In this document: piece by piece, positions 24,347 through 47,386 of the stretch
Position numbering within the stretch: the first letter of the stretch is position 1
Layout: each line of letters begins with the position of its first letter
The notes under the pieces: model-generated
What the model was told of the DNA's origin: nothing
The model's database searches: none
What the model saw: only the letters and a program-made list of their open reading frames with translations
Position numbers and translations under genes: made by a program
NCBI GenBank assembly: GCA_020024755.1
Contig: JAHHTH010000004.1
Span: 128,024 to 192,023 of the forward strand
Reading direction: 5' to 3'
Origin: Mycoplasmataceae bacterium
Lineage (GTDB): Bacteria; Bacillota_I; Bacilli_A; Mycoplasmatales; Mycoplasmoidaceae
Length of the DNA stretch: 64,000 bases

Positions 24347-25708
24347 ATGTTAGTTAAATTTATCGTAGGAAATGTTCTTTCATTCAATGAACAACAAGAA
24401 TTTTCAATGTTTGCAAACAACAAAATGAATAGAATGAATGAAAGAAATTATATTTGAACAGACAAACAAATCCTAAGATTAGGAGCAATTTTTGGTGCAA
24501 ATGCTTCTGGAAAAACCAATTTAATTGAATCCTTATCAATAATGAAGGACTATGTAAAAAACACATATAGTCATGCAAAATATAGATCAGATTATTTCTT
24601 ATTTAACAAACCAGATAAACCAAGCTATTTTGAAGTTGGTATTTTAATTAATGATCAACTTTATGCATATGGATTTGAAGTTATTCTTTCGCAATCTAAG
24701 ATAATTAGTGAATGACTATATTTAATTAAAGGACAAAAGGAAGAAAAAATATTTGAAGTAGACAAAGATAGAAAAATCTCATGAGGCTCTAGCGTTAATA
24801 AAGATTTGATTAAAAGAATTAAAGTAGCATATGAAATGGATTTTGTTCAATCAGATGATTTATTAATTACATTTTTAAATTGAGGCAAACCTTCATTTAA
24901 AAAGGCAGAGGGCTCAGAGATCTTTGTGCAAATTTATAGATGATTTAGAAATAATTTAATAATTATTAGTCCTGAGGACAAATATATTGATCAAATTGTT
25001 TTTGAGGATAATTTTATAATGAACCTTTCAGAATTGTTATCAGGGTTTGATACAGGTATTAAGAGAGTCGAAACTAAAGAAGTAGCTGAAGATGAAGTTA
25101 GAAAAGAAGTTGGAAGCAAAATATTTTCTGATGTAACTTATACTTTGAATCGCGGAAAAACAAGAGACTTAAATTTTAAAATGAAGGAAAGCAAGTCTCT
25201 GTTAATAGGTAATGAAATATTTATTATGGAAATATCTAGTGAAGCAGAATGTAAATTCAAAAAATTAGTTTTCTTTCATGATGATAGTGAAACTGAATTT
25301 TCTTATTCTAATGAATCAGATGGTACAAAAAGATTAATTCAAATCTCAACAATATTAATGAGTAAAAATGATGATTTAGTATTTTTAGTAGATGAACTTG
25401 AAAGATGCCTTCACCCTCACCTAACATGAGGATTTATAGAATCTTTCTTATCTAGAAATATAACTAATAGAAATCAATTAATAATGGCTACTCATGAACT
25501 TTACATCATGAATCAAGATTTATTAAGAAGGGATGAAATTTGATTCACAAACAAAATAAATAATGCAACTGAGTTGTATTCACTATCACAATTCAATGTT
25601 AGAAACGATAAAGTTATATTGAATGGATATAATGATGGCAGATTTGGTGGAGTGCCATATATCAATCCTATAATTGATTTTAAAAGTTTAAGGGATGGTA
25701 AAAATTAA
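24347..25708 (+). CDS. AAA15/ABC-like ATPase (AbiLi / AriA / PtuA-like), cassette 1
   Basis: 453-aa frame through TGAs. N-terminus LVKFIVGNVLSF, Walker A GANASGKTN, signature-like SDGTKRL, Walker B LVFLVDELERCLHP and H-loop MATHE. Confidence 0.85.
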
Positions 25709-26646
25709 TGAGAAAACCAAATAGAATTGGAGTTGATGTTAGAGAAACGAAAACTGAATATGAAGTACACCATCTATTTTATGAAGGTGTAGTTACAGAA
25801 CATCAATACTTTTCCTATTTGATTAAAAATAACGATTGAATTCTTAAACGCGAAAGAATATCAGTTAAACTTCTAAATAGATATGGATCAGAAGTTGGTT
25901 TATCTAATCCTAATACAATGTTGTCAAGAATTAATGATCTGATTAATTCAAAGAAAATAAATAAGGAATTAGTATTAGACAACATTTCTAAATTCATAGA
26001 ATCTCATTCAACCAATCTAAGTAATGCCCAAGAAGTAAATAAAGCTAAGCAAAAAACAATTGAAGAAATTAATGAATTATTGAAAGGGATGGATATTTCA
26101 GAAATAGTTAGCAATGCTAATATACTAGCAACGAAAATTAAACAAATTATTGACAAGAATCTTTTTCCAATTGATGATGTTAATGAAATTATTAAATTAG
26201 TTAAAACAAGTCAAAGATTTGCTGATGGCGACAAGATTCATTTAGTTTGCGATATTGACAAGCACTTTAATAGTCAAGAAAAATATAATAAATTCATAGA
26301 GAAATGTAAACATGAAAAAGTTAATGTATATATAACTAAACCATGTTTTGAATTATGAATATTGTTTCATCATAGTGATTGTAAATGCTATGACTATAAC
26401 AATTTACTAAATAATACTAAAATTGGAAATAATGGTAAATTTATTTCATGAAAATTAAGAGACTTTCATGCAATGTCGAAGAAACATATTAATGATGAAA
26501 AGTTCTACTCTAATCTAGTTAATGTTCAAAAAGCAATTGATAATTCATTAAATTATTCTACTAATCTATTTGAGTTATATGACAAATTAGGAACAAATAT
26601 TCCTGATCTTCTTATAATGATATTTAAAAAGAATCTACACAAGTAG
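25708..26646 (+). CDS. RloB-like (Toprim-related) protein, cassette 1
   Basis: ATG overlaps the ATPase stop (TAATG). N-terminal YEGVVTEHQYF resembles the RloB motif EGxxTExxYF. Also has IHLVCDIDK and ITKPCFELWILFH. Confidence 0.8.
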
Positions 26647-26678
26647 TTAAATAGTAGAATCAGCAAGATACATTAAAT

Positions 26679-26731
26679 GCTTGATTGAGAAATTAGATGG
26701 ATTTTGCTTGATTGAGAAATTAGAAGGATTT
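26679..26731. repeat. 27-bp tandem duplication
   Basis: GCTTGATTGAGAAATTAGATGGATTTT followed at once by GCTTGATTGAGAAATTAGAAGGATTT. Lies between the RloB-like and HNH genes. Confidence 0.9.
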
Positions 26732-26771
26732 ATAATTTATTAATATATTAAATTAATGAAGAGGTAGTCAT

Positions 26772-27041
26772 ATGCAAATTAATGATACTAAACTTAAGAA
26801 AATTTGAGAAAAAGCACCATACTGCAGTTGTAATCAAATTGATTGTTCTCCAAATAACCACAGATTATGTCCTATATGTGGTGAAAAAATGTTATGAGGT
26901 GCATATTGAGGTCATGTAACACAAAGAAATAGCTATTTTGCTTGAGACATAGATCATATTATCCCTATATCAAAAGGTGAAACTAGTGAACTATCTAATT
27001 TAAGAGCAGTTCATGCTAGATGTAATCGTTCTAGAAAATAA
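26772..27041 (+). CDS. Small HNH endonuclease with CxxC zinc knuckle, cassette 1
   Basis: 89-aa frame (5 TGA=Trp) after GAGGTAG. Contains CPICGEKM, WDIDHIIPISKGE and NLRAVHARCN. About 55% identical by eye to the ORF at 59461-59781. Confidence 0.85.
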
Positions 27042-27244
27042 ATCTAGAACATATAAAAACTTCTAAAGTATTTATGTGTTTTAAATTATGAAACAATTTA
27101 TATCAAGGATATCACTTAGTTTTATTTATTAATCATTTTTAAAATCAATATCCTCATTTAACTTAGACTCTATTCTATTAATTTGTTCTATATCTATTAA
27201 TGAAACTGATCATCTTATACATCATAAATAACCTTATTGAATAG

Positions 27245-27275
27245 AGAATAGATATATTGTATCTATTCTTTTATT
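27245..27275 (+). terminator. Hairpin terminator
   Basis: Perfect 10-bp stem AGAATAGATA-TATTG-TATCTATTCT followed by a T-rich run. Confidence 0.5.
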
Positions 27276-27377
27276 TAGTTATTTGCTATTTATATATATC
27301 TAGCTATAATTAGTGGTTAAAGAAAATAATAATAGTAATCCTATTGATACTATAATTAAATATTGAGGTTAATGAAT

Positions 27378-27824
27378 ATGGAATTAAATGTACAAGATCA
27401 ATATCTAGACGATTATGAAGAAGAAGATGAAGATGAAACAGAACTAGATGATGCATTTAGTTTTATTACTAAAAGCATTAAATCTGTAACAGATAAAGCT
27501 AAATTAGTAATGAATGATGCAATACTAGGGATAAGAGATAATGCAGAAAAGAGAAAAATCCAAGCATTATTGGAAAGTGAATCTTTCCAATCATTACTAA
27601 ATTATATTGTGATAGATTATGTTAAAGGTCTATGCAACTGAAGAAACAGATTTGAAGAATTATCTAAGGATGATTGCAGAAGAATTGCTATAGAAACTAA
27701 ACAACCACAATATATTGAACAAATAACTGAATATGTTCATAAAGTCTATATGCCAATATTCTATTCTTCTTTTTGTGAATTAATTAGTAGCAAAAAGAAA
27801 GTTTATAAGTTGGTTAGTAAGTAG
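27378..27824 (+). CDS. Hypothetical protein with strongly acidic N-terminus
   Basis: ATG 27378 lies 9 nt after GAGG. Track ORF 27363-27641 extends through TGA to TAG 27822. Contains the run DDYEEEDEDETELDD. No family recognised. Confidence 0.5.
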
Positions 27825-28051: not shown

Positions 28052-29704
28052 TTATAATAAACTTTTAAATATATCTTCAATCTTTTTTAACTTATCTCGT
28101 TTATAATCCTCTCTACATTTCAATAGATATTCCCATATGCTAATATAGGATTTGAAAATATTATTTTCCTCATTAAAATAGTCATCTAATTCTTCACCAT
28201 AGTATTTATCTAAAACAAAATAAATTATATCCATTAATAGTAGAACATATTGTTCACAGAATGATTCAGAACCAGTAACTTTCCCTTCCATACTTATATA
28301 TTTTATTCTTTTGGTTAATAATGGATGTCTGCCTTCTTTTATATAATTTGTTAGTTCAGTATCATTTGTTTTGTAACCAAAATTATTTTCTGCAAAGTTT
28401 TTTAGAGAACTTATAAAGGCAATCATTTCAGTCTTCCCAAATGCAAGAATATATAAATAATCTTCGATATATGATCTAAATGTACTTAATTTGATTTCTT
28501 TAAATCTATTTTTAATTTCAGCATATCATAACAATGCATAAGAATAAGCAATTGTGTCATACAACAAAATATGGCAAGCTGTATTTTCTCTTCATTCCAT
28601 ACTCATTTTGTAATTGAATATTATTTGATCTATATTGTAATATGTTAGAAATGCATATTCAACTTTGTCTAAATTAAGATTAAAATATTTTTCAATTTCT
28701 ATTTTTTTAAATAAGTCATACAATTGTCGACTTTGCATTACTGTGTTAATATCTTTATTTGAAAGTTCTTGGTGTATTTCTGCAATAAAAAACCTTGATA
28801 GCATTCATTCCATTTGTGGCTTGAATAATTTCATTTCATCAAAGGTTAATCCCTTAGATGCTTTAATTACTTCTTCCTGTTGATCACCGTCTTTGGAAAT
28901 ACTTGTATTTTTATTTTCTTCATAATCATATTCATTTTTTAACATTAATGTATTATGACGTTCATATTCTAGATGTTCAAGCACTTTTTTATATCTTGTT
29001 AAGTATAGATTTGGTTTGAATAGATCAAGTAGAGAAGAAATTGTCTTATATACTATTTCAGAGGTTTCGATCAATTTAGTAATATACTTGTTATGACAAT
29101 CTTTTACTTTATCACCATATACTTGATTCACGTTAAAACATACCATTTTATCTTTTTGTTGATGTATTAGTCCAGAAAGATCCTTTCAGAAGTCTAAAAG
29201 TTCTTCACAATATTTACTGTAAAGCTTTACAAAGGTATTGTCTTCCTTATTCGTTAATCAATTCTCTGTTAGGTATTTATGATCACCTGTCTCATGAAGC
29301 ATTCTTATTCTTAAGCAACAATCAAGTAACTTTCTATATTCTGTAAATGCTATATAGTATGAGCCAAAGTTTAAAGCAAGTATGAAATTTTGTAATGTTA
29401 ACCTAATTTCTTGGCAGAATTCTTGTAAATCTTTCCTACTAGTACAATCGTAAATGAAGTGCAGTGTTATTTCTAATTCTTGGAAATATGAAAACATTAA
29501 CTCACAGTGCATTCACCGGATTATGCAATTACTTTCAATTGTCTTATCAGCATTGTTCATATAAAAAAGCATTCACAAATGTAAATTTTTGTTTTCTATT
29601 ATTTCATCAAATTTTTCACTTCTTAGTAGCACTCTCATTGGAAAGAATGTTTTTGTAGGAACATCATCAAGTAATTTTGCTGTTTTAAAAGTTATTTTTT
29701 CCAT
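28052..29704 (-). CDS. Hypothetical 550-aa protein (orphan)
   Basis: Four track ORFs (28052-28426, 28592-28804, 28805-29146, 29258-29512) plus an upstream part are all in one frame, separated only by TGA. I translated it continuously from ATG 29704. Predicted helical. No family recognised. Confidence 0.65.
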
Positions 29705-29975: not shown

Positions 29976-31058
29976 ATGCAATGTTCATTGATTAGTAGAA
30001 TAAAACATAGAGAAGTAAACCATGAAGAAATTGGTAAATGAGTAAAAGATAAAAGAACTAATGTTCTAGTATTAAGATTTATTGCTAGTTTATTTGTAAT
30101 AGGTGTACATCTAAGATTTATTTTAAACAAAGGTTATAGTTCAAATTCTATTTCTTTTTCTATAGTAGAATGCATTACTGTTACTGGTGTAGATATATTT
30201 ATAATTTGTACTGCCATATCTTCATACATGAAGAGTAAGAATAACTACAAAAGATATTTGATATTAGTTGGTATACTTTATCTGTGATCATTTTCTGTTC
30301 AATTACAAAACATTATAATGCATAATGATATTGATTATTTAGCATTATTTATTCCTTTCTTTTTTGGAAAGGACTTGTGATATTTAAGAGCATATGTTGT
30401 ATTCTATCCATTAATTCCTATTATAAACAAAGGCCTAAAGGATTTTAACTTAGCAATAATGTTCATTATCTTTTATATGATTTTTACTATAACTCAAAGC
30501 TTTGATATTAGAGAATTTAATATTTCAAGCGGATATCATATTCTTCATTTTATATTCTTATATATGTTTACAAGATCAATGATGATTGTATTCTTTAATT
30601 ATTTTGACAAAAGAAAATGAATATTAATAATATCTGGCTCATTATACTTATTGTTCTTATTATCTAATATCTTAACTACCTATTACATTAAAAGTAATAC
30701 TAGATATTCAGATTATCCAGTAATATTTATGGCAACTTCATTTAGTATCTTCTTTATGTTTTTAGATTTTAAGAAGAACAAGTTTAACAAGTTTATATGT
30801 TTCTTAGGGAGAAACTCGTTGTGATTTTATATATTGGATAATAGATTCTCTTGTATCCATAAATGAGGAATAAGTGGATGGTTCGGTAATATGAATAATT
30901 CATGTGTGTGTGTGTGTGAATACTTATGTGCATTTATTCTTAAAACATTGATCATAATATTAATTATTGTGGTATTCCATTTTATTTATATTGGTATTTC
31001 AAAATTAATATCTAAAAAGAAAGCAAAGAATGCAGAATATATTATATGCAATAAATAA
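29976..31058 (+). CDS. Membrane acyltransferase family 3 (O-acetyltransferase-like)
   Basis: 360-aa frame through six TGAs with ~9-10 hydrophobic segments. N-terminal LVLRFIASLFVIGVHL matches the acyltransferase_3 entry motif. Contains a (TG)8 tract. Confidence 0.72.
30903..30918. repeat. (TG)8 dinucleotide microsatellite inside the acyltransferase CDS
   Basis: tgtgtgtgtgtgtgtg read directly from the sequence, encoding CVCVC about 47 codons before the stop. Confidence 0.97.
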
Positions 31059-31152
31059 ATTTTCTAAATACTAGTTTCAAGTGCATTCTTACAACAATAT
31101 AAATTCATTTTTCTTGTAGTTTAATAATATTCATAGATGCTATAATAATCAT

Positions 31153-32097
31153 ATGAAATCTAAAACACTTTTTTTGTTTGAATCGAATTATAGTACCTTA
31201 CTTTCTATGGTTTATTGTTTTAAGAATAATATTAAAATTAATAGAGTTATTAATATATTTCAAGAAAACCAAAAAGGAACTAAGAGCATTCTTACTTATT
31301 TGCATAAAAAATATAATTATTGATGCGGATATCAAGACTTTTTTAAAAAAGTTTATTTTGCTTATTTTAAATTTATTAGAGCTGAAAAGTACGACATTAT
31401 TTTTACTTCACCGCATACACCTTCATATGAATTTGTACGTGAATATTTAAGCCAGAAAGGTTTGAATCCAAAGTACTACTTTGTTGATGATGGGTTAGCA
31501 TTTAAACAAAAAAAATATTGAGATCGTTTTGGTGACAAGATCAATTTGTCTACAAAGATGATTGTAGACTCTCCGAATAAGTTTATTTCCAAAAATAAGC
31601 AAGATGTTGTGAATCTATTCAATGATTTCCCTGAGCTATCAAAGAAACAAAAGAAATATATAAATAATTTCTTTGGATTATCTCTAAAGAAAATGGAAAA
31701 AGAAATGGACTGTATTTTATTAACACAACCGCTGTATGAAGATGGTTTATGTAATTTAGATGATAAACAATTACTTTACAACTTATATATTGATAATTTG
31801 TTAGATGGAAAAATAGAAGCAAAACAATTGTGAATAAAACCACACCCAAGAGAAACACAACTTGTTCGAATTAGTAATAAAAATGTAAACACATTCTATA
31901 TAGAAAGAAATATACCAATTGAGTTATTATTTTTAAATGGTTTGAAAGTAAAAAATATTGTAAGTTTTATTACTTCTACAATTATTTATAAAAAGTTTTT
32001 AGATTGCAATTTTATAAATTTAGATTTGAAATGAGAAAAAGGTATAAATGTAGATGAAATAAGAACTTGTATAAAAAAAACTAATTTTGTCTTATAA
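31153..32097 (+). CDS. Putative sialyltransferase (GT52-like)
   Basis: 314-aa frame through four TGAs, containing track ORF 31546-31833; track ORF 31178-31450 is the wrong frame. Both short bacterial sialyltransferase motifs are present: D/E-D/E-G (YYFVDDGLAF) and HP (WIKPHPRE). Similar in size to CpsK/LsgB. Adjacent to the neu operon. Confidence 0.6.
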
Positions 32098-33151
32098 AAT
32101 TAACAATTAATTTAGTTGCATATTTTAATGTGTTATTCTTACAGTATGGATTACTATGTTTTATTTTTAGATCCTTTAATGATTCGATAGCCTTTAAAAT
32201 GTCTTTTTCCTTACAAGGAATATTTATTATATTGTTACTTCTAATTCTTCCTAATTGTCTATCTCCAATATTTATAATTGGTTTGCAAAGACAAGGCACT
32301 TCAATAATTCCAGATGAAGAATTTCCTACTAAAGCTTTTGAATATGACAACAGTGAAAAGAAATCATCATTGCTAAGAGAAGGGAAGTAATCAAAATTAT
32401 TTTTAGAACAAAATTCCTTGATTAAATTAATGTATGTGTTTCCACCTACATCATTATTTCCACCTAAAAATACAAATTTATATCCATTATCTACTAATTT
32501 TTGGCATGTTCCAAGAAGAATTTTACCTTGGTTTATGTCATTCTTAATTGTTTCAGGATGGAATAATATAACTATGTAGTTTTTGTATTTTTTATAAAAA
32601 CTATTTATTTTAAAATTATGAACATTAGAGCACCCTAGAGATCCAATATTATGCACATTGCTTTTACCCATATTTAGAATGTTTTGTTTATATTGTTCAG
32701 TTGCTGTTAAATGTAATGAAGACATCATGGTTATTGAATGTCTTACAAATTCATCATATGCGCCTAAAGTTATTTCCCCTCCATGTAGATGTATTATAGG
32801 AATGTTCAACATTGCTGCACATATAGCAAAAGGAAGAATTTCACTTCTATCCCCTAATAGCATTAAATAATCAATCTTATTCTTTTTTAAATAATTTGTA
32901 AACTTGGTTTGAAGTTTAGACATAATATCAATGACTTGATATTTATCATTGTTTCTATCTGCATTAACTTTCATAATGTCTGCATTAGGAAAATCAGTTA
33001 ATACACTTTTATATGTAGAACCATATTTCTTTGATAGATGCATTCCGCTAATTAAAATTTTTAAATCAATTTCACTATCTAATTCTTTTAATAGTTTTCT
33101 CATGATTCAATAATCAGCTCTCGAAGTAGTTACATATAATAAATTAGCCAT
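32081..33151 (-). CDS. neuC: UDP-N-acetylglucosamine 2-epimerase (hydrolysing), NeuC-like
   Basis: Track ORF 32081-33103 extends N-terminally through TGA to ATG 33151 (MANLLYVTTSRADYWIM). Also HLHGGEIT, GNSSSGIIE. TAG stop. Confidence 0.87.
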
Positions 33152-34359
33152 TAAAACACCTTCTTATTTAGTAATTCATATGCACTATCATTTAAATGCA
33201 ATCCGTCTAATGAATATTGCAATAGTAAATTATTTTGATCACAAATATATTTATTGATATCAATAAAGTCATCTTTGTATATTAGTTTTAATTCATCATT
33301 TAATATCCTTACCTTGGATATAAATTCTTTCCCTCTATCATTTCTATATATTGTATATGGCACAGATAATACTTTAATTTGTTTTGGTTTTAGTGTCGAT
33401 ATTATCAAACTAATATTTTTTAATATTTCATTAACATTATTTGAAGATGCTAAATCATTACTACCAATTAAAATATAAAGATTATCTATGTCTATATTTA
33501 GATTAGCTGAGTTAATTAATTTAACATATTGTTCTGATCTAATTGTAGCTATCCCTCAATTAGAAATATTTTTAGGAAGAGGTCAATATTCAACTAGCGA
33601 ATCTCCTAACACTACATTTTTCAAATGTTTATTGTGAACGAAACTATTAAATTTAGTTTGTAATGAATTAAAGAGTTTTGACTGATTTGATTTATCTCTT
33701 ATTATGCTTAGTGCAATATTAAAGTCTTCAATATCATCTATATCGATTGATGATATCTTATCCATTAGATAAGCCTGAGTATTTCCTTTTAAAAAGAATG
33801 TTTTTAATTCTAGATATTTTTTAATGTTAGCAATATATATTGCACCATTTGGAGTATATTGTTGCTCAAAAGTTTGTCTTCCATAAGATGATAGTTTTGT
33901 ATCAGAAGTTAGATAATAATTAGTATCTAAGTTCATATATAAAGAAGTTGGTTTTGAAGCTTTGCAAAATGAAACTACCATATTATTGCCATTAAATAAA
34001 TTGAATGCTTCTTTAATATGCTCTGCATTTCTTAATGGAGATGTTGGTTGTAGTAAGCAAAAGGTATCGCCACCATTATAATTTTCCAAAATTAACTTTA
34101 AAGAATCATAACTAGACGTTTTATCACTAGCTTCTTGTTCTGTTCTCTTGTGATATGTCAATTTATCAGCATAAATAATTTTAACATCATTAATATATTT
34201 TTCTGAATCACTAGAGAATACTATTTCATCAAATTCATTAGATTCTATTGCTGCATCAATTGTATAAAAACACAGAGGTTTATTATACAGAAATAGCATA
34301 TTCTTATCTTTTAACCCCTTTGAGCCACTTCTAGCTAATATAATAGCAATCTTTCTCAT
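33151..34359 (-). CDS. neuA: Bifunctional CMP-N-acylneuraminate synthetase with C-terminal SGNH/GDSL esterase domain, NeuA-like
   Basis: Track ORFs 33583-34377 and 33151-33408 are in one frame, and the gap is open with TGA=Trp. N-terminal domain has IAIILARSGSKGLKDKN and LLQPTSPLR. C-terminal domain has SGNH blocks GDSLVEYW, GSND and DGLH. Confidence 0.87.
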
Positions 34360-35408
34360 TATTTTTTTTCCTCTCAAATGAATTTAGAATGCACTATTAA
34401 ATCATCTGCTTCAAAGTCTTGTTCTGCTACTTTGCCCAATAGCTTTTCTCATTCTCATGCACTAATACCATTTCCTGGTCTTTTAGTTGTAATATTCTTT
34501 TCAGAAAAGATGTCACCTTTCTTAATGTTCTTTTTGGCAACAATTGATCTTCTTGCTATAAACTTATTCTTTAATTCAGAATTAGTAACATATTTATTTT
34601 CTGAGCCTAGAGATAATTCCGCTGCATGAACACCTTCTACTAAATTCTTAAATTCTTCTTCATTTAAAGATGCTTTGTGATCTGGGCCTAGAAGATTTCT
34701 ATCAAGAGTAAAATGTTTTTCAATAAATTCTACACCATATGGAATACTCGCTACTGCTGCGTAAATATTTCTAGAATGATCACTAAATCCTATTTTGTTA
34801 TGTTTAAATTCTTTTTTAAATTGTTTTAATACATTTAAGTTGACATCTTCATAAGGAGTAGGATATTCTGTATTACAATGTAATACAGCTATTTGACTAT
34901 CCTTAATTCCATTTGATTTTAATAGTTTTATACATGCTTTAATTTCCTTGATAGAAGACATCCCTGTAGATAATAGAAAATAATTCTTAGGATTATTTAA
35001 TTCTGAAAGTCTTTTGATATATGGATAATTATTAATTTCTCCTGAAGGAATCTTTCAAATTCTTTGCCCAATAGAATTTAAGAAATTAATTGAGTCAATA
35101 TCAAATGGTGTTGCAAATACTTCAATATTTTTATTTTTGCTTTTGACATAATTTCTAAGCATTTTATAATCATCATAACTAAGTTCTAATTTTTTAGTCA
35201 TTTCTAATTGTGATTCTTTTGTTCCGGTAGTTTTCTTTTGATATTCCGCTTTTGGGGCTTTTTTAGATATTAAACTTGAGGATTTAAATACTTGGAACTT
35301 AATTGCATCAACATTATTCTTTACTAATGAATCTACCATTTTTTTAGCTAATTTAATATTACCATTGTGATTGCAACCAATTTCACCTATTATCATTACT
35401 TTGCTCAT
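34359..35408 (-). CDS. neuB: N-acetylneuraminate (sialic acid) synthase, NeuB-like
   Basis: Track ORFs 35055-35408 and 34455-34961 are in one frame, joined and extended through TGAs to TAA 34359. N-terminus IIGEIGCNHNGN. C-terminal SAF domain (KKGDIFSEKNITTKRPGNGIS). Confidence 0.92.
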
Positions 35409-35418
35409 ATAAAACTCC

Positions 35419-36051
35419 TTATTTGTTCTTTTTTAAGAATTTAGCTGGATTACCAACTACCACATCGTTGTCTTTTACATTCTTTCTTACTACTGAACCT
35501 GCACCGGTAATAGAATTCTTACCAATATTTAATTGTCCAAACACAATACTTCCTGATCCAACTCAAACATTATCTTCAATATTTACATCACCATTAATAA
35601 TTGCACCCGGTGATATATTACAATGATTTGCTATATGTGAACCGTGGTCAATAATTGAACCTGTGTTAATTATGTTATTATCACCTATTGTAATATTTGA
35701 TGTAATTGTTACATTAGATCCAATAAAATTACCAGAACCTAATTTAACATCTTTTGCAATGATTGCTGTTTTATCTATTATGTTGACAGTCTTTAAATTA
35801 TATTTTTGTATTTTTTGAAATCATTCTTTTCTTATTTCATTGTTTCCAACAGCGACAATAAAGTAATACTTTTTTAATATATTTACATTTTTGTCTGAAA
35901 TATCATTTGCAATAATTTTAGATATAGAAGAAATTTCTTTATATTTGTCTATACAACCTATAAATTTATACTTTAATTTTGAATATTTATTTATACTTGA
36001 GATCACAGAGTTCGCATGCCCACCAGACCCAATTAACACTATTTTTCTCAT
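35419..36051 (-). CDS. neuD: Hexapeptide-repeat acetyltransferase, NeuD-like
   Basis: Track ORF 35821-36051 extends through TGAs to TAA 35419. N-terminus KIVLIGSGGHA, then left-handed beta-helix repeats (IGDNNIINTGSIIDHGSHIANHCNISPGAIINGDVNIEDNVWVGSGS). Confidence 0.8.
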
Positions 36052-36143
36052 AACATTATTATAGCATCTATAGATAATTATAATATTTATATATTATAAT
36101 AAAACACATACATGTTAATCATTTTGTGTGGTATTATCTAATT

Positions 36144-36869
36144 ATGAAAAACTTAAATATTGTAATCCCTGCAGGAGGGGAAGGAAAAAGATTTAAAGAA
36201 GGCGGATATAATAATTTGAAGCCTTTTATAACTATTAATGGAAAAACAATGATTGAACATGTTATTGATGGCTTTGTGTCAAAAAAATATAACGTTAAGA
36301 TTTATATTATCATGCAAGAAATACATATGCACGAATATAATGCATTAATTAAAAATATTTGTGATAAACATTCTAATGTTACATTTTTACCGTTGGTTTC
36401 AAAAACAGAAGGAACTGTATGCACAATTTTAAATTGATGTCAAATTTTCAACAATGATGATATGGTATTATCTGCTAATTGTGATCAGCTTGCTGATATA
36501 ACACTAGATGAATATATCGATCAATCAGTAGATTTTGATGGATCTCTATTAGTGTTTGGAGGAGAAAAATCTCCTAATTGATCATATGTAAAAATTGAAA
36601 ATGATTTAATTATAGAAGTCGTTGATAAAAATCCAATTACTGATGTAGCACTGATTGGATGATATTTTTGAAAAAAAGGGAGTGATATGATTAACTCATT
36701 TATATGGTTATTAATGAATAATATAAGAACAAAAAATGAATTTATGCAAAACATTCCGTATAATTTCATCATTTCCCAAAATAAAAAAGTAAAACCAATT
36801 TTCATAGATAGAAGTAAAGTTCATGGTTTAGGAACACCTATGGAATTGACTAAATACCTAAATAAATAA
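36144..36869 (+). CDS. Sugar-phosphate nucleotidyltransferase (specificity unknown)
   Basis: ATG 36144. Starts NIVIPAGGEGKRF. Track ORFs 36126-36437 and 36687-36869 are in one frame, joined through TGAs. Confidence 0.65.
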
Positions 36870-36980
36870 GGTTATGCTTTTTTTCTATGTAGTGCTAATA
36901 TTTTCAGATGTTCTTATTTGATAATTAAGTTTTTATATTTTTGCCAAAAAATAAAAGAAGTAATTTATAATTTAACCAAT

Positions 36981-38000
36981 ATGTTTATTGGAATTATTTC
37001 GTATGGAGATGTTGATAAAGCAATAGAACAATTTAAGAGAATTTACTCTCCTGACAACTTTTATATGATTCACTACAATAAACGTGATAAAAAAGCCAAA
37101 AAGAATGATTTTTTGCGATTAAAAAATTATTATTCAAAATTTAAGAATGTTATATTTTACTCAAAGCATAAGGTATTTTGAGGCACTAGAACAATTGTTG
37201 GAGTGCAACTGGAAATAATGAAATATTTTTTGAAGCATAGAAATGAACAGTATTTGTTGATAGTTGATGCAAAAACTTCAAATATTATAAATATCAAAGA
37301 AATAGAAAAAATTATTAATAAAAATGGGCCTAATAAAAATTATTATAATTTTTCTGGGTCTGTATATAAAGAAACATTTCCAACCCTTTATGAAGTTAAA
37401 AATAATTATGGTGAATGTTTTTACAATAAGAGATGATATAAGAATACATACCCTACTAATACATCACACTTCAAATTACATTTACGCTTAATTTGTATAT
37501 GGGAAATCTTGACTGATAAAATAGTTTTCAAAAACTTTTTAAAAAGATCTGCACCTGATTTTAAAGAGTGATTTCTTTCTGAATATCATTCATGAAGAGT
37601 TGAACCAATGTATTGGGATTTAATTGCTTCAAACAAGAAAAGAAATATGCCAAAATTCTTGCATGAATGAAAAATCATATATAATTCATTAATGTCCTTG
37701 TTTACAGTTTTAAATAGGGAACAACTTTCAATAATGTTTTCGCACAAGAAGGAACTTAAAAAAATTTTTAGATATTCTAAAGGGATATTGGGACCAGAAG
37801 AGTTTATATTTGCAACTTTGTTTTATAACCTAGTTGATAATGATGAATCAAATTCGTTAAATCTATTATCATATTTTGATATTAGTGATAATGATTCTAT
37901 TAATAAATTAAAAAAACTTAGAAAGAATAATAAAACAATTTTATTCAATAGAAGAATTGATAATTACAAAATTTTTAACAAAGAGTTCCCAATTGTTTAG
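36981..38000 (+). CDS. Putative glycosyltransferase (GT14 / core-2 branching-enzyme-like)
   Basis: Three track ORFs (36918, 37203, 37692) are in one frame, and I checked codon by codon that the gaps are open. The weak family call rests on IISYGD...YMIHYNKRDKK and KVFWGTRTIVGVQLE. Confidence 0.45.
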
Positions 38001-38236
38001 TGTTGTATAAACTTTTTTGAATAAATAATTTTATGTTTACTGATAAATAGTGGTTATATTTGTCTTTCCTAATAAAATTTGAGGTAAAAAGTTTTTGCAA
38101 TGATTATTAATTCATTAAAAGGATAAACAATTTATTCATAATTTAAATTATTGTACATCTCATGAAAATGTAAAAATCAACTTTTTATATATTTAAAAGA
38201 AACATTAACATAGAATAAACATATAATATATGTATT

Positions 38237-39187
38237 ATGATTAACTATATTATATTTGGAGCTAATGGTTTTGTAGGTAGAAATTTTATTTTGAAAAATA
38301 AACAAGATTTTATTTTCGCAATAATTTCTGATCATAATTCTAAAGATAGCTTAAATTCTTTTTTGAATGAAAATAAAATCCAAAGAGTAGAAATTTTAAC
38401 ATTTGATGAAGTGCTAAGTGACTATAAAAAATTTGGAAAACTTGAAAATAAAATTATATTGAATTTAGCTTGAAAAGCTACCTCAGGAGATGCTAGAAGG
38501 GATTGAAATTTACAATTTGAAAATGTAATTACACAAAGGAAAATATTAAATTTTTGTAAAAATATAGGTTGTCAAAAATATGTTGGATTTGGTTCAATTG
38601 CTGAAAAACAAATTTATAGAAGTCTTATGAACAATGAAACTGTAAATTTTAATAGTTATTATGCTTTGGCTAAATATTGTTCACATTTTGAAGCGACTTC
38701 ATTTTGTTCAGAAAATAAAATTAAACTACTTTGATTGCAAATTACTAATACTTTTGGAACATTTGAAAATTCAGCTCGTTTGATTAACACAATTTTAAGA
38801 AAAATTATTACATCACAAGAAAATCATGAAGTACTAGAATTTAATTTTTCGTCTGGACAACAACTTTATGATTTTGTGCATATAGATGATTGCATAGGAC
38901 TTGCATATAAATTTATAGAAACATGGCAACTGGATAACGAAGTACATTTATTGACTAGTAATGCTCCAAGAAAATTCAAGGATTATATCAATGATATTTT
39001 TAAGTTCATAAAATGCGAGAACAAAATAAATTTTAATGAGTCTAATAAAGTTGATATGTTTATGACTAAAGAGGACTACATAGATGATAAAATTAATAAT
39101 ATTAGCTTTTACAAATATAGATGAACATTTAAAGATGCAATAATTGATACATATATGCATATTAAGAAAGAAAAAGGAGAAAAATAA
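38237..39187 (+). CDS. NAD(P)-dependent SDR-family sugar epimerase/reductase
   Basis: Rossmann motif IIFGANGFVGRN and catalytic YxxxK (YALAK). Track ORFs 38237-38473 and 38735-39124 joined through TGAs. The stop overlaps the next ATG. Confidence 0.7.
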
Positions 39188-39954
39188 TGAAAGTTGTAAT
39201 TTTAGCTGGTGGATTTGGCACTAGAATTAGTGAAGAATCAGAATTAAAACCTAAACCAATGATTGAAATTGGAGGAAAACCAATCCTCCTTCATATTATG
39301 GAACATTATTCAAAATATGGGTTTAATGAATTTATCATTTGTGCTGGTTATAAACAATATTTTATCAAGGAATATTTTTCAAACTTTTTTTTGCACAACA
39401 CAGATGTAACTTTCGATCTAGCTAATAACGGTAAAACTATTTATCATGAATCTCATTGTAAGAATTGAAAGATCACAGTTGTTGATACTGGGCTAGAAAC
39501 TCAAACTGCAGGCAGAATTAAAAGGGTCGAAAAATATATTGATGGTGATGAATTTTTATTAACTTATGGTGATGGACTTTCTAATGTTGATTTAGGTAAA
39601 TTAATTAAATCTTACAGTAAAGACAAATTGGTTACTCTTACAACAATTCAACCAGGTGGTAAATTTGGTGTAATTGATATTGATGGTGATTCTAATGTAA
39701 AAGCTTTTAATGAAAAAACTAAAAATGATGGTGGATGAATTAATGCTGGATTTATGATTGTAAATAAAAAAGCATTATCATACATCAAGGATGACTCTGA
39801 ATCATTTGAATTTAATATTTTACCGATTTTAGCAAAAGAAGGAAAAGTATCTTGCTATAAACATGACGGTTTCTGAAAATGCATGGATACATTAAAAGAT
39901 AAAAATGAATTTGAAGAATTGTGAAAGAAGGGCAATGCACCATGAATAAAATAG
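39187..39954 (+). CDS. rfbF: Glucose-1-phosphate cytidylyltransferase
   Basis: MKVVILAGGFGTRISEES.LKPKPMIEIGGKPIL.HIM..Y...G..EFIICAGYK and a ...GFWKCMDTLKDK tail, typical of RfbF/DdhA. Frame joined through TGAs to TAG 39952. Confidence 0.9.
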
Positions 39955-41000
39955 AACTTGAAAAGTTTTATAATGGTAAAAAAATTTTTATAACTGGGTG
40001 TACAGGCTTCAAAGGTTCATGACTTTGTAGCATATTACACAAATTTGGTGCCAAAATCGTAGGATATTCTTTAGATGTTGAACACAATAGTCTATTCTAC
40101 AAATTGCATTTAAACAAAAAAATTAGATATGTAGAAGGGGATATTAGAGATCTTAAAAAAATGTCTAATGTAGTAAAAGAATGTAATCCAGATATTGTGT
40201 TTCATTTAGCTGCCCAACCATTAGTAATAGACTCTTACAAGGATCCTGTGTACACTTATGATGTAAATGTAATGGGTACAGTTAATATTTGTGAATCTCT
40301 AAGACAATTAAATAAGAAAGTTTCGTTTATAAATGTAACAACAGATAAAGTTTATAAGAATATTGAAAAAGATTATTTATACAATGAAGATGATAATTTA
40401 AATGGATATGATCCATATTCTAATTCTAAGTCATGCTCTGAACTAGTTACATCTTCTTACATTAATTCATTCTTTTATAAAACTGATATTATTACTTCGA
40501 CTTGTAGAGCTGGTAATGTAATTGGTGGTGGTGATTTTGCTGCTAATAGAATTGTTCCTGACACTATTAACTCAATTATCAAAAACGAAAATATAACCTT
40601 AAGATGTCCAAACTCTATTAGACCTTATCAGCATGTACTAGAACCTGTTTTTGCTTATGTTGATTTGGCTATGAAGCAATATAATGATAAGAGTGTTGCA
40701 AGTTCATATAATATTGGACCATCTAAACAAGATTGCATTAGAACTATTGACATTGCTACTAAGATTATTGAAAATTGAGATTCTAATATCTCAATTAATT
40801 ATACAGATGCAATATATCATGAGGCAGGTTTATTAATGTTAGACAACTCTAAGATATCTAGGTCTATTGAGTGAAAACAAACATGAAGTATAGATGAAGC
40901 CATCAAACACACAACAGAATTTTACAAAAGGACTTATAATGGCGAAAATTTTGAAGATGTGATTAATGAGCAAATTAATTTATTCTTAGGAGAAAAATAA
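39942..41000 (+). CDS. rfbG: CDP-glucose 4,6-dehydratase
   Basis: KIFITGCTGFKGSWL (TGA=Trp), YSNSKSC (YxxxK), RAGNVIGGGD, IRPYQHVLEP. Contains track ORF 40104-40778. Confidence 0.88.
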
Positions 41001-41557
41001 TGAAATTTGAACTTGTAAAAACTAAATTTAAGGATGCTTATTTAATTAAATATTTTAGAGCTAATGATAATAGAGGGGCATTGATTAAAGATTTTAACTC
41101 TATCGAATTTGAACAATTATTGGGATATAAGTTTAATCTAGTTGAAAATTTTTACACTATATCTAAGAAAGGAGTAATTCGAGCTATTCACTTTCAAGAT
41201 ATAAAACCCCAAAATAAAATAATTAGAGTTGTTAAAGGCAAAATCTATGACGTTATAGTAGATCTTAGACCTGACTCTGAAACTTTTATGGAATGAGAAG
41301 GTTGATACTTATCTGAAAATGAGAATATTGAGTTATATGTTCCAAAAGGATTTGGACATGGTTACTTAGTAATTGAAGATTCTATTGTTTCTTATAAAAC
41401 AGATGAAAACTTCTATGCACAATATGATACTGGAATTAGTTGAAATGATACTGACTTAAATATAAAATGGCCTCTTGACCAAGTTGAGAATGAAGTTATT
41501 ATTTCTGACAAAGATAAGAGTTTACAATCTTTCAAAACATGAAAATTACAACAATAA
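41000..41557 (+). CDS. RmlC-like cupin sugar-nucleotide 3,5- (or 3- / 5-) epimerase
   Basis: DNRGALIKDF, RAIHFQ, K.IRVVKGKIYDVIVDLR, GFGHGY. Translationally coupled (TAATG) to rfbG. Confidence 0.85.
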
Positions 41558-41795
41558 CTTTTTATTATTTAAATCAATTGTTTATTTTTCAAATTACATA
41601 TATTCATAAACTGCACTTTTGTATTAAGTAATATTAAAGATCTTTTAAATTAAGTTATATATAAATAGATATAACAATTATACTTAATATTATGGTTAAT
41701 ATTATGTAAATATTAGTAAAATATATTAGTAACTATAATTAGTTTTAATTGCTGCTGTTATCAAATGTAATTTAAGGAAATAAGGAAGGTTAATT

Positions 41796-42977: not shown

Positions 42978-43015
42978 CTATTTTGTTGATTATTTATAAA
43001 GTGGAGGAAAAGTGA

Positions 43016-44044: not shown

Positions 44045-44274
44045 TAATACCAATTTTTATATTTATTTTTTTAGAATATTTATCATTTGATGAATTTAAA
44101 TAGCTACAATAATTTTTAAAATTACAGCAGATTAGATTTATAAACATAACAAAAATAAATAAAGTTAAGAATCATTTCAATTGCTGCTATTATCAGTAAA
44201 AGTTGAAATATTAGATTGTTAACTAGAAATGATATATTACGACATTTGAAGGATGTATAATAATTAGGAGTTCA

Positions 44275-45369: not shown

Positions 45370-45589
45370 TTTAAAGTTTTATAATAATTTATAAATCTCT
45401 AAGTTCTTTAATAAGCTTCCCTATTTTGTCGATGATGTATTGAACTTAAATAAGTTATGATAATTCATTAAATAATATAATAAGTTAACATAATTTATCT
45501 GAAGTTTAAAGGGTAAATAGTTGAAACTCAATTTATTTTGTTTTGCATTTGTTAATATACATATCAAATATTGTATAATCTTATATATT

Positions 45590-46456: not shown

Positions 46457-46464
46457 AGGTTCAT

Positions 46465-47211: not shown

Positions 47212-47217
47212 GTGATC

Positions 47218-47310
47218 ATGAGATTTTCTATTCCCATTTATAAATATCCTAGTATATTAACTTGTGAAAAATCAAGACCAATTAAATTGAAAAACTTTAC
47301 CAATTTTTAG
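47218..47310 (+). pseudogene. Truncated N-terminal remnant of a GT2 glycosyltransferase
   Basis: 30-codon ORF MRFSIPIYKYPSILTCEKS... resembles GT2 N-termini (compare MRFFDIIIPSYNSDKLLTRCIES at 48556) and then stops. Confidence 0.35.
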
Positions 47311-47386
47311 ATTGTTAAATAATAAGTATATTAGTTATTAAATCATATAGAATGTTTTGCTGTCGATAAATGATATAATCACATAT

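Follow-up and report, generated by a model that had tools for sequence, protein, structure and literature searches.

A putative de novo sialic acid pathway and sialyltransferase in an uncultured Mycoplasmoidaceae-type Mollicute

Sialic acid biosynthesis genes closest to those described here are found in Escherichia coli K1 (kps region 2, neuDBACES) and in the sialic-acid O-antigen loci of E. coli and Salmonella, which have these four genes in an identical order, and in the capsule genes of Streptococcus suis and group B Streptococcus (GBS), in which a GT52 sialyltransferase (cps2N/cpsK) accompanies neuBCDA. Mycoplasmas are known only to bind, strip or eat sialic acid, whereas the locus presented here would make N-acetylneuraminic acid (Neu5Ac). 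A literature search returned no report linking Mollicutes with neuB or with sialic-acid or nonulosonic-acid synthesis. Judging from the sequence, we consider it likely that a 64,000-nucleotide stretch of DNA, analyzed as a whole and referred to here as the window, encodes a functional de novo CMP-Neu5Ac pathway together with a sialyltransferase in an uncultured Mycoplasmoidaceae-type Mollicute. The locus and its neighborhood comprise the following features.

31134-31149, plus strand: promoter-like element TAGATGCTATAATAAT, an extended -10 box (TGnTATAAT) with a putative promoter function
31153-32097, plus strand: putative divergent sialyltransferase (GT52-like, GT-B) of 314 aa with four TGA-Trp codons, proposed from remote profile homology
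32081-33151, minus strand: neuC, 356 aa, by homology the hydrolysing UDP-GlcNAc 2-epimerase (UDP-GlcNAc to ManNAc plus UDP)
33151-34359, minus strand: neuA, 402 aa from ATG, predicted N-terminal CMP-Neu5Ac synthetase joined to a C-terminal SGNH/GDSL sialate O-acetylesterase
34359-35408, minus strand: neuB, 349 aa, by homology N-acetylneuraminate synthase (ManNAc plus PEP to Neu5Ac), with NeuB and SAF domains
35419-36051, minus strand: neuD, 210 aa, NeuD-family hexapeptide acetyltransferase with PglD_N and hexapeptide domains
36055-36070, minus strand: second exact copy of the promoter-like 16-mer, directly upstream of the neuD ATG
36144-36869, plus strand: sugar-1-phosphate nucleotidylyltransferase, 241 aa (Pfam NTP_transferase)
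36981-38000, plus strand: GT14/Core-2 "Branch"-like glycosyltransferase, 339 aa (PF02485, 35.7 bits)
38237-50441, plus strand: adjacent glycan locus with sugar-nucleotide genes, glycosyltransferases and an ABC exporter
45521-47211, plus strand: Wzm/Wzt(TagGH)-like ABC exporter, within the glycan locus

The complete minus-strand operon proposed in the initial annotation can be read directly from the sequence and is intact. Its order is neuD-neuB-neuA-neuC, as in E. coli K1 and unlike the streptococcal neuB-C-D-A, and its gene set is indeed that of both E. coli K1 and GBS. Stop and start codons overlap as TAATG at the neuB/neuA junction (GAGAGGAAAAAAAATAATGAG) and again at neuA/neuC (AAGAAGGTGTTTTAATGGC), while neuD and neuB are separated by a 10-nt gap (TAA-GGAG). 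With GGAG ahead of neuB and these two overlaps, the operon would be translated as a coupled unit. The putative sialyltransferase gene is convergent with neuC and overlaps it by 17 nt. Exactly two copies of the promoter-like 16-mer occur in the window, one at the start of each unit. The TATAAT of TAGATGCTATAATAAT ends 6 nt ahead of the sialyltransferase ATG, implying a leaderless or near-leaderless mRNA; because the identical extended -10 box TGCTATAAT lies 6 nt before both units, the arrangement suggests that the neu operon and the sialyltransferase gene give rise to co-regulated, leaderless transcripts.

Domain and family matches agree with the functions originally claimed for the four neu genes, namely, epimerase, synthase with SAF domain, CMP-sialate synthetase, and NeuD acetyltransferase. 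Against their respective NCBIfam cut-offs, NeuC (Epimerase_2) scores 336 bits for TIGR03568 (cut-off, 236), NeuB scores 434 for TIGR03569 (400), and NeuD scores 193 for TIGR03570 (161). NeuA reaches no NCBIfam equivalog cut-off; it contains CTP_transf_3 and a C-terminal Lipase_GDSL domain (Pfam), and its best PDB matches are the CMP-Neu5Ac synthetases 1EYR and 6IFD. Catalytic motifs are kept in NeuC (GDRSE, HLHGGE), NeuB (FSDHS, EKHFT), and NeuA (GDSL-252, GSND-299, DGLH-385). By homology to characterized enzymes, NeuC would hydrolyse and epimerise UDP-GlcNAc to ManNAc, NeuB would combine ManNAc with PEP to give Neu5Ac, and the N-terminal domain of NeuA would use CTP to form CMP-Neu5Ac. NeuD may work with the esterase at the C terminus of NeuA as an O-acetylation/de-O-acetylation pair. 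E. coli K1 and GBS have such a pair, with the NeuD family member as a sialate O-acetyltransferase. The 314-aa GT-B protein would then move Neu5Ac onto an acceptor on the cytoplasmic side of the membrane.

This acceptor would most likely be a glycan or glycolipid that the neighboring glycosyltransferase-rich locus produces and its Wzm/Wzt-like ABC transporter exports. That locus encodes an SDR epimerase/reductase, a Glc-1-P cytidylyltransferase, a CDP-Glc 4,6-dehydratase, and an RmlC-like epimerase, along with three GT4 and three GT2 transferases; judged by adjacency only, it is the likely source of the acceptor. The nucleotidylyltransferase and the GT14-like gene both accompany neuDBAC in Mollicute loci, with homologues in the code-4 contigs L005 and L006 (42-46% identical in the case of the nucleotidylyltransferase) as opposed to none in 80 other neuB loci. 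They are candidates, respectively, for supplying UDP-GlcNAc and for building the acceptor; the best PDB matches of the GT14-like protein are the core-2 beta1,6-GlcNAc-transferases 3OTK and 2GAK (E 1e-4). Genes of defence type (among them ThsB/TIR-like, AAA_21/RloB, HNH, and Fic) flank the locus.

If displayed as proposed, the product would mean that a wall-less mycoplasma relative probably coats itself with sialic acid. The pathway could be real and yet have a purpose unrelated to imitating a vertebrate host. The sialylated glycan might form a charged coat that protects the cell (e.g., from phage, invertebrate immunity, or complement-independent stress), or it might terminate the chains of the polymer exported by the ABC transporter. 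The flanking defence-type genes are in keeping with such a role, as is the presence of Neu5Ac-clade NeuB in rumen and gut commensals, but in E. coli K1, GBS, S. suis, and Mannheimia sialylation is a host-interaction trait. We hold a role outside mimicry to be possible but somewhat less likely than not; the sequence itself favors neither role, and it neither backs nor contradicts host mimicry.

The initial annotation had assigned the 314-aa ORF to the sialyltransferases on the basis of its DDG and HP motifs and a size close to that of GT52 enzymes. Both motifs are present, in YYFVDDG (D112, D113, G114) and IKPHPRE (H231, P232), together with LLTQPLYEDG (189-198) and IPIELL (E257). Composition-matched shuffling reproduces an ordered DDG and HP pair in 0.2% of cases, and 2 of the window's 46 long ORFs have one; the pair is thus suggestive but not proof alone. 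The size also fits, but a direct match to Pfam GT52 did not materialize: searched by itself, the ORF matched nothing in Pfam, NCBIfam, or PDB sequences, even at E=10. Support comes instead from its 80 distant homologues, through profile homology, shared motifs, and synteny. Pfam GT52 or polyST was detected in 53 of 60 members of the family, and a profile built from the relatives without the ORF recovers it at 125.5 bits (E 2e-34; none of 2,000 shuffles scored), with the relatives having been chosen by similarity to the ORF. This profile finds only sialyltransferases in the PDB. It scores 180 bits with the ORF that occupies the place of the capsular sialyltransferase in S. suis (180-190 for S. 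suis-type ORFs generally) and 23 bits with a fragment of K1 NeuS. Invariant columns of the family are G114, TQP191-193, K229, HPRE231-234, P255, and E257. Homologues adjoin neuDBAC in L005 and L006, and also in S. suis-type loci.

These observations bear on a second alternative, in which CMP-Neu5Ac is made but the ORF is an unrelated GT-B protein, or uses another donor, and sialic acid is transferred by the GT14-like enzyme or a GT2/GT4 enzyme. An AF2 model of the ORF adopts a GT-B fold (pLDDT 81.6), and Foldseek with this model returns generic GT-B proteins (UDP-GlcNAc 2-epimerases, TM ~0.5), with no sialyltransferase in the top 50. Like the lack of a direct family match, this result speaks for the alternative. 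Moreover, the GT14-like gene is linked to Mollicute neuDBAC as tightly as the sialyltransferase gene, and no homologue of the latter lies within the 7 kb of sequence of L003, another neu contig. Against this stand the GT52 or polyST affiliation of the relatives, the exclusively sialyltransferase PDB matches of the profile, the way its D/E-D/E-G, HP, and E motifs line up with the catalytic region in enzymes of the PmST1 type, and the homologues that S. suis-type loci carry at the position of the sialyltransferase; in addition, no sialyltransferase is known from GT14, GT2, or GT4. We regard the alternative as unlikely and favor a very divergent GT52-like sialyltransferase, for which the support is indirect only.

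The nature of the sugar was addressed with phylogenies of NeuB and NeuC, as had been proposed at the outset. In congruent trees, NeuB and NeuC each fall in a clade (bootstrap, 100/100) with the enzymes of E. coli K1, an E. coli O-antigen locus, Mannheimia, Salmonella, and S. suis. Within the NeuB tree the Mollicutes form a subclade of their own (100/100), to which Gammaproteobacteria are sister (186/200). Loci of legionaminic type (NeuC-like, SDR dehydratase, and DegT) and pseudaminic type (dehydratase and DegT without NeuC) branch outside the Neu5Ac-context clade in these neighbor-joining trees, where the Leg and Pse clades are labeled by gene context only and no characterized LegI or PseI is included. 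The trees thus bear out the earlier preference for Neu5Ac. A product of another kind (legionaminic, pseudaminic, or another 5,7-diamino acid), in which NeuD would serve as an N-acetyltransferase of the PglD/LegH kind, could be read from the PglD_N domain of NeuD, the nearby NTP-transferase and SDR enzymes, and the nearest solved NeuC relative, which is LegG (5XVS, 181 bits; at 260-286 bits, E. coli NeuC scores above it); TIGR03569 and TIGR03568 may also fail to exclude Leg enzymes. We consider this very improbable: NeuB and NeuC group with E. coli K1 and S. suis outside all loci with DegT plus dehydratase, NeuB scores below the PseI cut-off (248 versus 340 bits), and the NeuA esterase domain is confined, within the sample, to Neu5Ac-clade loci. 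Consistent with the initial annotation, which saw no aminotransferase or dehydratase of the Leg or Pse routes, no DegT-type aminotransferase was found at 22-52 kb of the window, and the sole 4,6-dehydratase there belongs to the CDP-glucose type (TIGR02622, 397 bits; cut-off, 278) and falls far below the cut-offs for LegB (93 versus 475) and PseB (50 versus 408).

A Mollicute source, also claimed initially, is borne out. Genetic code 4 and ~25% GC hold across the window, and the contig bearing the neu operon also carries a ribosomal-protein operon, dnaA, and ffh. By its housekeeping genes the organism is a member of the Mycoplasmoidaceae. Ffh is 72% identical to that of "Mycoplasma sp." MAGs and 65-67% identical to that of Ureaplasma and Mycoplasmoides species, which, together with the code-4 relatives, forms the basis of the Mollicute identity. 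Under translation table 11 the region 31153-36051 is fragmented; table 4 yields five intact ORFs at exactly the coordinates first assigned, none with internal stops, which disposes of any disruption under code 4. All five genes (the sialyltransferase ORF and neuDBAC) contain in-frame TGA and none contains TGG; of the nine TGA codons within neuDBAC, three coincide with Trp in homologues from E. coli or S. suis, and a further three with Phe/Tyr of standard-code homologues. A check of related genomes found the neu operon in four other code-4 contigs (21-24% GC), beside rpoC, ligA, and Mollicute-type genes. That a foreign bacterial neu operon was joined to a Mollicute contig by contamination or chimerism, as a draft or metagenomic source and the 57-60% identity of NeuB to gammaproteobacterial enzymes might suggest, is effectively refuted by this codon usage, by the GC content of the neu region (25-27%, matching its flanks), by those four contigs, and by an independent assembly of the same arrangement in a Logan run. 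The operon would rather have been acquired by this Mollicute lineage in a single event, from a source of K1 type that was probably gammaproteobacterial, and then adapted fully to ~25% GC and TGA-Trp codons.

Compared with E. coli, identities are 57% for NeuB (K1), 41-42% for NeuC (K1 and O-antigen), and 40-43% for NeuD, while NeuA is 34% identical over its full length, esterase domain included, to the O-antigen NeuA. As in E. coli K1, an ABC-transporter-type export system lies nearby, but the window has no NeuE, NeuS polysialyltransferase, or KpsFEDUCS genes; its transferase is the 314-aa GT52-like protein rather than a GT38 polymerase, and the organism uses code 4, has 25% GC, and is wall-less and without an outer membrane. 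S. suis and GBS share with the window a sialyltransferase of similar size (about 300-320 aa) with the D/E-D/E-G, LTQPL, KPHPR(D/E), and IPxEL motifs, a bifunctional NeuA with esterase domain, NeuD, and a NeuB that is 54% identical. However, streptococcal assembly is Wzx/Wzy dependent whereas an ABC exporter is nearby here, and the window protein lies below Pfam GT52 detection whereas the family profile gives S. suis-type ORFs 180-190 bits. Among solved structures, that profile is best matched by Pasteurella multocida PmST1 and related GT80 enzymes (2EX0, 2C84, 4V2U; E ~1e-6 to 8e-6). These have the GT-B fold in common with the window protein, and the alignment takes in the region around DDG, the HP motif, and the E and S residues that bind CMP; the similarity is only remote, the GT80 enzymes measure about 390-400 aa, and the window protein alone has no PDB match. 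Finally, the sialic-acid traits known in Mollicutes (sialidases, nan catabolism, and sialoglycan-binding adhesins) concern the same sugar in what is probably a similar mucosal or host-associated niche, but the locus described here is biosynthetic.

The minus-strand operon neuD-neuB-neuA-neuC (neuDBAC) and the convergent plus-strand ORF for a putative sialyltransferase lie at 31153-36051. In the standard bacterial code this region holds only short ORFs, whereas code 4, in which TGA specifies Trp, yields five intact genes:

31153-32097, plus strand: sialyltransferase candidate, 314 aa, intact with code 4
32081-33151, minus strand: neuC, 356 aa, intact with code 4
33151-34359, minus strand: neuA, 402 aa counted from ATG, intact with code 4
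34359-35408, minus strand: neuB, 349 aa, intact with code 4
35419-36051, minus strand: neuD, 210 aa, intact with code 4

The gene ends coincide exactly with those in the initial annotation, which had described a complete neuDBAC operon; disruption in code-4 translation, named there as evidence against the pathway, is seen in none of the five genes. Across these genes TGA stands in frame 13 times, and TGG is absent. Three of the nine TGA codons in the neu genes fall at Trp columns of the E. coli or S. suis homologues (NeuB 118, NeuB 320, and NeuA 259), and three further ones stand opposite Phe or Tyr. Because these TGA codons align with Trp and other aromatic columns, we conclude that TGA is read as Trp and that the neu genes are undisrupted. 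The TAATG overlaps from which translational coupling had been proposed are present in the junction sequences of neuB/neuA and neuA/neuC, both preceded by a purine-rich stretch, and the gap between neuD and neuB spans 10 nt (TAA-GGAG).

The 64-kb window has only two copies of the 16-mer TAGATGCTATAATAAT, at 31134-31149 on the plus strand and at 36055-36070 on the minus strand, directly upstream of the sialyltransferase candidate and of neuD, respectively. It holds an extended -10 box (TGnTATAAT) whose last base lies 6 nt ahead of each ATG. The identical element at the start of both convergent units suggests that they are co-regulated by a shared promoter and give rise to leaderless or near-leaderless mRNAs. 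A general promoter scan found promoter-like sites no more often in the window than in shuffled sequences, and a terminator scan returned no terminator-like hairpins. The 3' ends of the sialyltransferase candidate and neuC, on opposite strands, overlap by 17 nt (32081-32097) without such a hairpin, and interference or antisense effects could arise where their transcripts converge.

The window also carries the S10-spc-alpha ribosomal protein operon, dnaA, and ffh. The Ffh protein is 93% and 80% identical to metagenomic proteins and 69-72% identical to proteins labeled "MAG: Mycoplasma sp."; its counterparts in Ureaplasma (U. ceti, U. parvum, and U. urealyticum) reach 67%, and those in Mycoplasmoides (M. 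pirum and M. alvi) reach 65-66%. Ureaplasma and Mycoplasmoides are genera of the Mycoplasmoidaceae. These affinities and the code-4 genes agree with the Mollicute origin assumed at the outset. We rejected contamination or a chimeric assembly in view of the in-frame TGA codons, the GC content, and the occurrence of the locus in independent assemblies. A scan of GTDB r232 with the window NeuB as the single query recovered no relative, which shows that the source genome is not one of its species representatives. Rfam and tRNA scans of the window gave no matches, and its GC content drops from 33% to about 25% past 14 kb.

Each neu product could be assigned to a family. NeuB combines the NeuB catalytic domain (PF03102, 265 bits) with a C-terminal SAF domain (PF08666, 42 bits), contains the motifs FSDHS and EKHFT, and scores 433.8 bits against TIGR03569, above the curated equivalog cutoff of 399.65; against the NCBIfam model for the pseudaminic acid enzyme PseI it scores 248.5 bits, under the cutoff of 340.25. 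NeuC has the Epimerase_2 fold of Pfam, with the GDRxE and HxHGGE motifs (GDRSE at residue 100, HLHGGE at residue 121), and scores 336 bits against TIGR03568 (curated cutoff, 236) and 28 bits against the WecB model (cutoff, 210). The N terminus of NeuA is a CTP_transf_3 domain (PF02348, 80 bits), and the best PDB matches of the protein are the CMP-Neu5Ac synthetases 1EYR and 6IFD; no NCBIfam equivalog cutoff is reached (PseF, 103 versus 206). Its C terminus is a GDSL/SGNH esterase with GDSL at 252, GSND at 299, and DGLH at 385, and the protein aligns end to end with NeuA of the E. coli O-antigen locus. NeuD, a PglD_N domain followed by a left-handed beta-helix, scores 192.6 bits against TIGR03570 (curated cutoff, 160.8), a subfamily model that also takes in PglB/VioB-type enzymes, so we infer the acceptor of NeuD from context. 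All four enzymatic roles predicted from the sequence alone, namely, UDP-GlcNAc 2-epimerase, NeuNAc synthase with SAF domain, CMP-sialate synthetase, and acetyltransferase, are supported by domain or curated-model matches. Identity to the E. coli K1 kps and O-antigen proteins is 57% for NeuB, 41-42% for NeuC, 40-43% for NeuD, and 34% for full-length NeuA.

The best PDB match of NeuC is LegG of the legionaminic acid pathway (5XVS, 181 bits); E. coli NeuC scores higher, at 260-286 bits. Because of this LegG match, and because the TIGR models for NeuB and NeuC may let legionaminic acid enzymes through, we built a context-labeled phylogeny. A scan of the GTDB species representatives with an alignment of five code-4 NeuBs yielded 80 loci, which were taken with 10-kb flanks. 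All ORFs of these loci were clustered, and the large clusters were labeled by Pfam (Epimerase_2, SDR 4,6-dehydratase type, DegT aminotransferase, NeuD-like, and others). The loci fall into three tiers:

Tiers of neuB loci by NeuB identity to the window
Tier 1: NeuB at least 50% identical; 20 loci; NeuC and NeuD homologues in all, dehydratase and aminotransferase pair rare
Tier 2: NeuB 37-43% identical; 8 loci; NeuC-like protein, SDR dehydratase, and DegT in nearly all (legionaminic acid signature)
Tier 3: NeuB at most 36% identical; remaining loci; mostly without NeuC, with dehydratase and DegT (pseudaminic acid signature)

Tier 1, which takes in E. coli K1, the E. coli O-antigen locus, S. suis, S. 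acidominimus, S. azizii, Gemella, Segatella, and Bacteroides, forms a clade with NJ bootstrap values of 100/100 for both NeuB and NeuC. NeuB of the window groups with the E. coli K1, Mannheimia, Salmonella, and S. suis enzymes at 100/100 (NJ), apart from the synthases found in legionaminic or pseudaminic acid contexts, and NeuC joins E. coli K1 and S. suis NeuC at 100/100, not the LegG type of legionaminic acid loci. These are distance trees (NJ) in which the legionaminic and pseudaminic acid clades are named by gene context, not by characterized enzymes. The phylogenies proposed as a check of the annotation accordingly place both proteins in the Neu5Ac-type clade and outside the two context-labeled alternatives.

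Gene content points the same way. No aminotransferase or dehydratase of the legionaminic or pseudaminic acid routes had been visible in the sequence, and the DegT cluster has no representative in the 22-52 kb part of the window. The sole 4,6-dehydratase in this interval is a CDP-glucose 4,6-dehydratase (TIGR02622, 397 versus a cutoff of 278) that scores 93 against LegB (cutoff, 475) and 50 against PseB (cutoff, 408) and is part of the neighboring CDP-hexose pathway. Within our locus sample, NeuA proteins with an esterase domain occur in tier 1 loci only. A legionaminic or pseudaminic acid pathway was rejected in view of tree placement, gene context, and the absence of DegT, LegB, and PseB from this interval; these comparisons, along with the distribution of the NeuA esterase, favor Neu5Ac as the predicted product.

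The assignment of the 314-aa ORF is the least secure. The protein matches nothing in Pfam, first at an E value of ≤0.01 and then at ≤10 (including GT52, PF07922), and nothing in NCBIfam; a phmmer search of the PDB returned just a spurious isocitrate dehydrogenase (E = 0.098), and a word-indexed search of 5.8 billion proteins retrieved the ORF alone. When 1.84 billion representatives were searched exhaustively with phmmer, 80 distant relatives emerged (best E = 4e-12), typically of 300-340 aa. Pfam assigns 53 of the 60 that were aligned to GT52 (PF07922; best E = 1e-38), with matches to the polysialyltransferase family PF07388 as well. Scored singly against PF07922, the relatives P0124, P0125, and P0133 reach 28.9, 88.9, and 113.8 bits, the latter two passing the gathering threshold. 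With the query left out, a profile of the relatives gives the window ORF 125.5 bits (E = 2e-34 at Z = 1e6), and none of 2,000 shuffled sequences and no other ORF of the window scores.

The same profile also matches proteins of other bacteria. It scores 180 bits against the S. suis ORF directly upstream of wzx-neuB-neuC-neuD-neuA, which is where the capsular sialyltransferase is encoded, 180-188 bits against its equivalents in S. acidominimus and S. azizii, 228 bits against an ORF of Segatella, and 23 bits against a partial NeuS of E. coli K1. Family members are found no more than a few kilobases from neuB in S. suis, S. acidominimus, S. azizii, and Segatella. The PDB matches of the family profiles are sialyltransferases only: GT80 enzymes of the PmST1 type at E values of about 1e-6 to 8e-6, in alignments that pass through the GT80 DDG, HP, E, and S positions, and, weakly, the GT52 enzyme NST (E = 0.64). 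YYFVDDG, LLTQPLYEDG, IKPHPRE, and IPIELL are conserved in the family alignments, with invariant columns at G114, T191-Q192-P193, K229, H231-P232-R233-E234, P255, and E257. The two short motifs first noted in the ORF, DDG (112-114) and HP (231-232), are indeed present and align with the family EDG and the invariant KxHPRE. An AlphaFold model has a GT-B fold (pLDDT, 81.6; pTM, 0.84); in a Foldseek comparison with PDB structures, the leading hits are UDP-GlcNAc 2-epimerases and other GT-B enzymes (TM of about 0.5) and none of the best 50 is a sialyltransferase, so the fold alone does not discriminate.

From these sequence comparisons we place the 314-aa ORF, as a highly divergent member, in the GT52-like superfamily of bacterial sialyltransferases. 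The initial reading of the ORF as a sialyltransferase of GT52/CpsK-like size stands in part: profile homology, motifs, and linkage to neu genes support it, but without a direct PF07922 match even at an E value of 10 the ORF falls outside GT52 as Pfam delimits it. That the enzyme is instead a polysialyltransferase, as the PF07388 matches of its relatives might indicate, is unlikely given its size of 314 aa.

The sialyltransferase candidate and neuDBAC lie beside a larger set of glycan genes:

36144-36869: sugar-1-P nucleotidyltransferase, 241 aa
36981-38000: GT14/Core-2 "Branch"-like glycosyltransferase
38237-50441: glycan locus with Glc-1-P cytidylyltransferase, CDP-Glc 4,6-dehydratase, RmlC-like epimerase, and SDR (CDP-6-deoxyhexose route), plus three GT4 and three GT2 glycosyltransferases

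The glycan locus also includes a Wzm/Wzt(TagGH)-like ABC exporter, and we saw no priming phosphotransferase within it. Directly upstream of the sialyltransferase candidate, at 29976-31058 on the plus strand, lies a membrane O-acyltransferase (Acyl_transf_3) with no conserved counterpart at related loci; O-acetylation of the exported glycan is a possible function. Farther out, a 550-aa ORF with seven TGA codons (28052-29704, minus strand) has no Pfam match and no homologue at related loci. Three paralogous ORFs (50807-51370 and 51490-52032 on the plus strand, 52641-53252 on the minus strand) have a common N-terminal pattern, F-I-S-[YF]-S; just one of them has a Pfam match, a weak one to ThsB_TIR (Thoeris), and a small membrane protein (52135-52632, minus strand) adjoins them, with no ThsA-like partner seen. 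Genes of defense or mobile types flank the glycan locus at 21214-22260, 24347-27824, 55420-57264, and 60379-63706 (Fic/DOC; a set of AAA_21 ATPase, RloB, and HNH; an AAA_15/AAA_21 ATPase; further ATPases), and in view of these flanks the glycan and sialylation region may belong to a variable, island-like stretch of the chromosome.

The nearest relatives of NeuB (64-77% identity) are encoded on contigs of 21-24% GC with genes that require code 4, one of them labeled "uncultured Mycoplasmataceae bacterium" in GenBank. All of these contigs have the neuD-B-A-C order, and in one of them rpoC and ligA adjoin. A survey of related species had been suggested, and it shows that neuDBAC extends to further code-4 contigs, two of which also carry an adjacent match to the sialyltransferase profile: one ORF in L006 (129 bits) and one truncated ORF in L005 (108 bits; 30% identity to the window ORF, E = 2e-16). 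The nucleotidyltransferase (42-46% identity) and the GT14-like enzyme (28-30% identity), whose best solved relatives are core-2 beta1,6-GlcNAc-transferases, accompany neuDBAC in the window and as a pair in L005 (814-2603) and L006 (11596-14523), but are missing from all 80 non-Mollicute neuB loci. These companions could be a UDP-GlcNAc supplier and an acceptor builder.

The five code-4 NeuBs form a clade (100/100), and the gammaproteobacterial K1-type enzymes are its sister group (186/200); NeuC agrees. This congruent placement fits one old acquisition of the whole operon, with divergence and complete amelioration afterwards. The neuB/neuC/neuA/neuD group at 9998-17742 of L012 ("MAG: Mycoplasmatales bacterium WFFMC_MAG_074") groups with Streptococcus and Gemella enzymes at 200/200, and its NeuA has no esterase domain. 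We read it as a separate acquisition and rejected it as a sixth Mollicute copy of the operon; the ORFs leave the genetic code of L012 ambiguous. The closest relatives of the sialyltransferase candidate itself are on code-4 contigs of 18-21% GC (L089, 924-1865; L090, 1710-2651; L006, 3530-6551), where UDP-galactopyranose mutase (Glf) and GT2 genes adjoin them. The proximity to Glf makes galactofuranose glycans candidate acceptors there and hints that such glycans are sialylated in those lineages.

The analysis shows five intact genes, the families they belong to, where they fall in the trees, their synteny, and their conserved motifs; from there, characterized homologues suggest how the pathway would operate. 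NeuC would convert UDP-GlcNAc to ManNAc, NeuB would condense ManNAc with PEP to Neu5Ac, and NeuA would activate Neu5Ac with CTP to CMP-Neu5Ac; NeuD and the NeuA esterase would cycle O-acetyl groups, and the GT52-like enzyme would transfer Neu5Ac to an acceptor. By adjacency, this acceptor may be the product of the neighboring locus at 36144-50441. More speculatively, the conserved nucleotidyltransferase might supply UDP-GlcNAc that a wall-less cell would perhaps otherwise lack. We offer as a tentative and, in its entirety, rather doubtful proposal that an uncultured Mycoplasmoidaceae-like clade has a lineage-specific seven-gene sialylation module, consisting of neuDBAC, a sialyltransferase subfamily divergent enough to escape the Pfam GT52 model, a dedicated sugar-1-P nucleotidyltransferase that restores UDP-GlcNAc, and a GT14-like enzyme that builds a GlcNAc-containing acceptor, with which it places Neu5Ac on an ABC-exported (Wzm/Wzt-type) membrane lipoglycan for vertebrate host mimicry. 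If true, this would amount to a sialylated "capsule" on a wall-less, minimal-genome bacterium.

Mollicutes are a textbook case of reductive evolution. To our knowledge, their dealings with sialic acid have been those of binders (P1, P110, and Gli349), cleavers (sialidases), and consumers (nan genes) only. An intact, codon-adapted pathway predicted to make and transfer Neu5Ac is kept across at least five divergent code-4 lineages, which implies that some mycoplasma relatives spend PEP, CTP, and UDP-GlcNAc on decoration with a host-type sugar. In reviews and surveys, mycoplasmas figure only for sialidases, nan catabolism, and sialoglycan adhesion, and a literature search of incomplete coverage found no paper tying Mollicutes, Mycoplasma, or Ureaplasma to neuB, nonulosonic acid synthesis, or a sialyltransferase. 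If the hosts are vertebrates, molecular mimicry through Siglec and factor H engagement would join the means of Mollicute immune evasion. The nucleotidyltransferase and the GT14-like enzyme give a hint of how a cell without a wall may supply and exploit the pathway, and the very divergent putative sialyltransferase would be a resource for glyco-engineering. Although this is a genomic prediction for an uncultured organism, it is of note for both mycoplasmology and bacterial sialobiology.

The predicted pathway corresponds to the classical Neu5Ac system of E. coli K1, group B Streptococcus, and S. suis, and the E. coli K1 and O-antigen loci have the same neuD-neuB-neuA-neuC gene order as the window. 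The novelty lies in the taxon, in how extremely the transferase has diverged, and in companion genes specific to Mollicutes.
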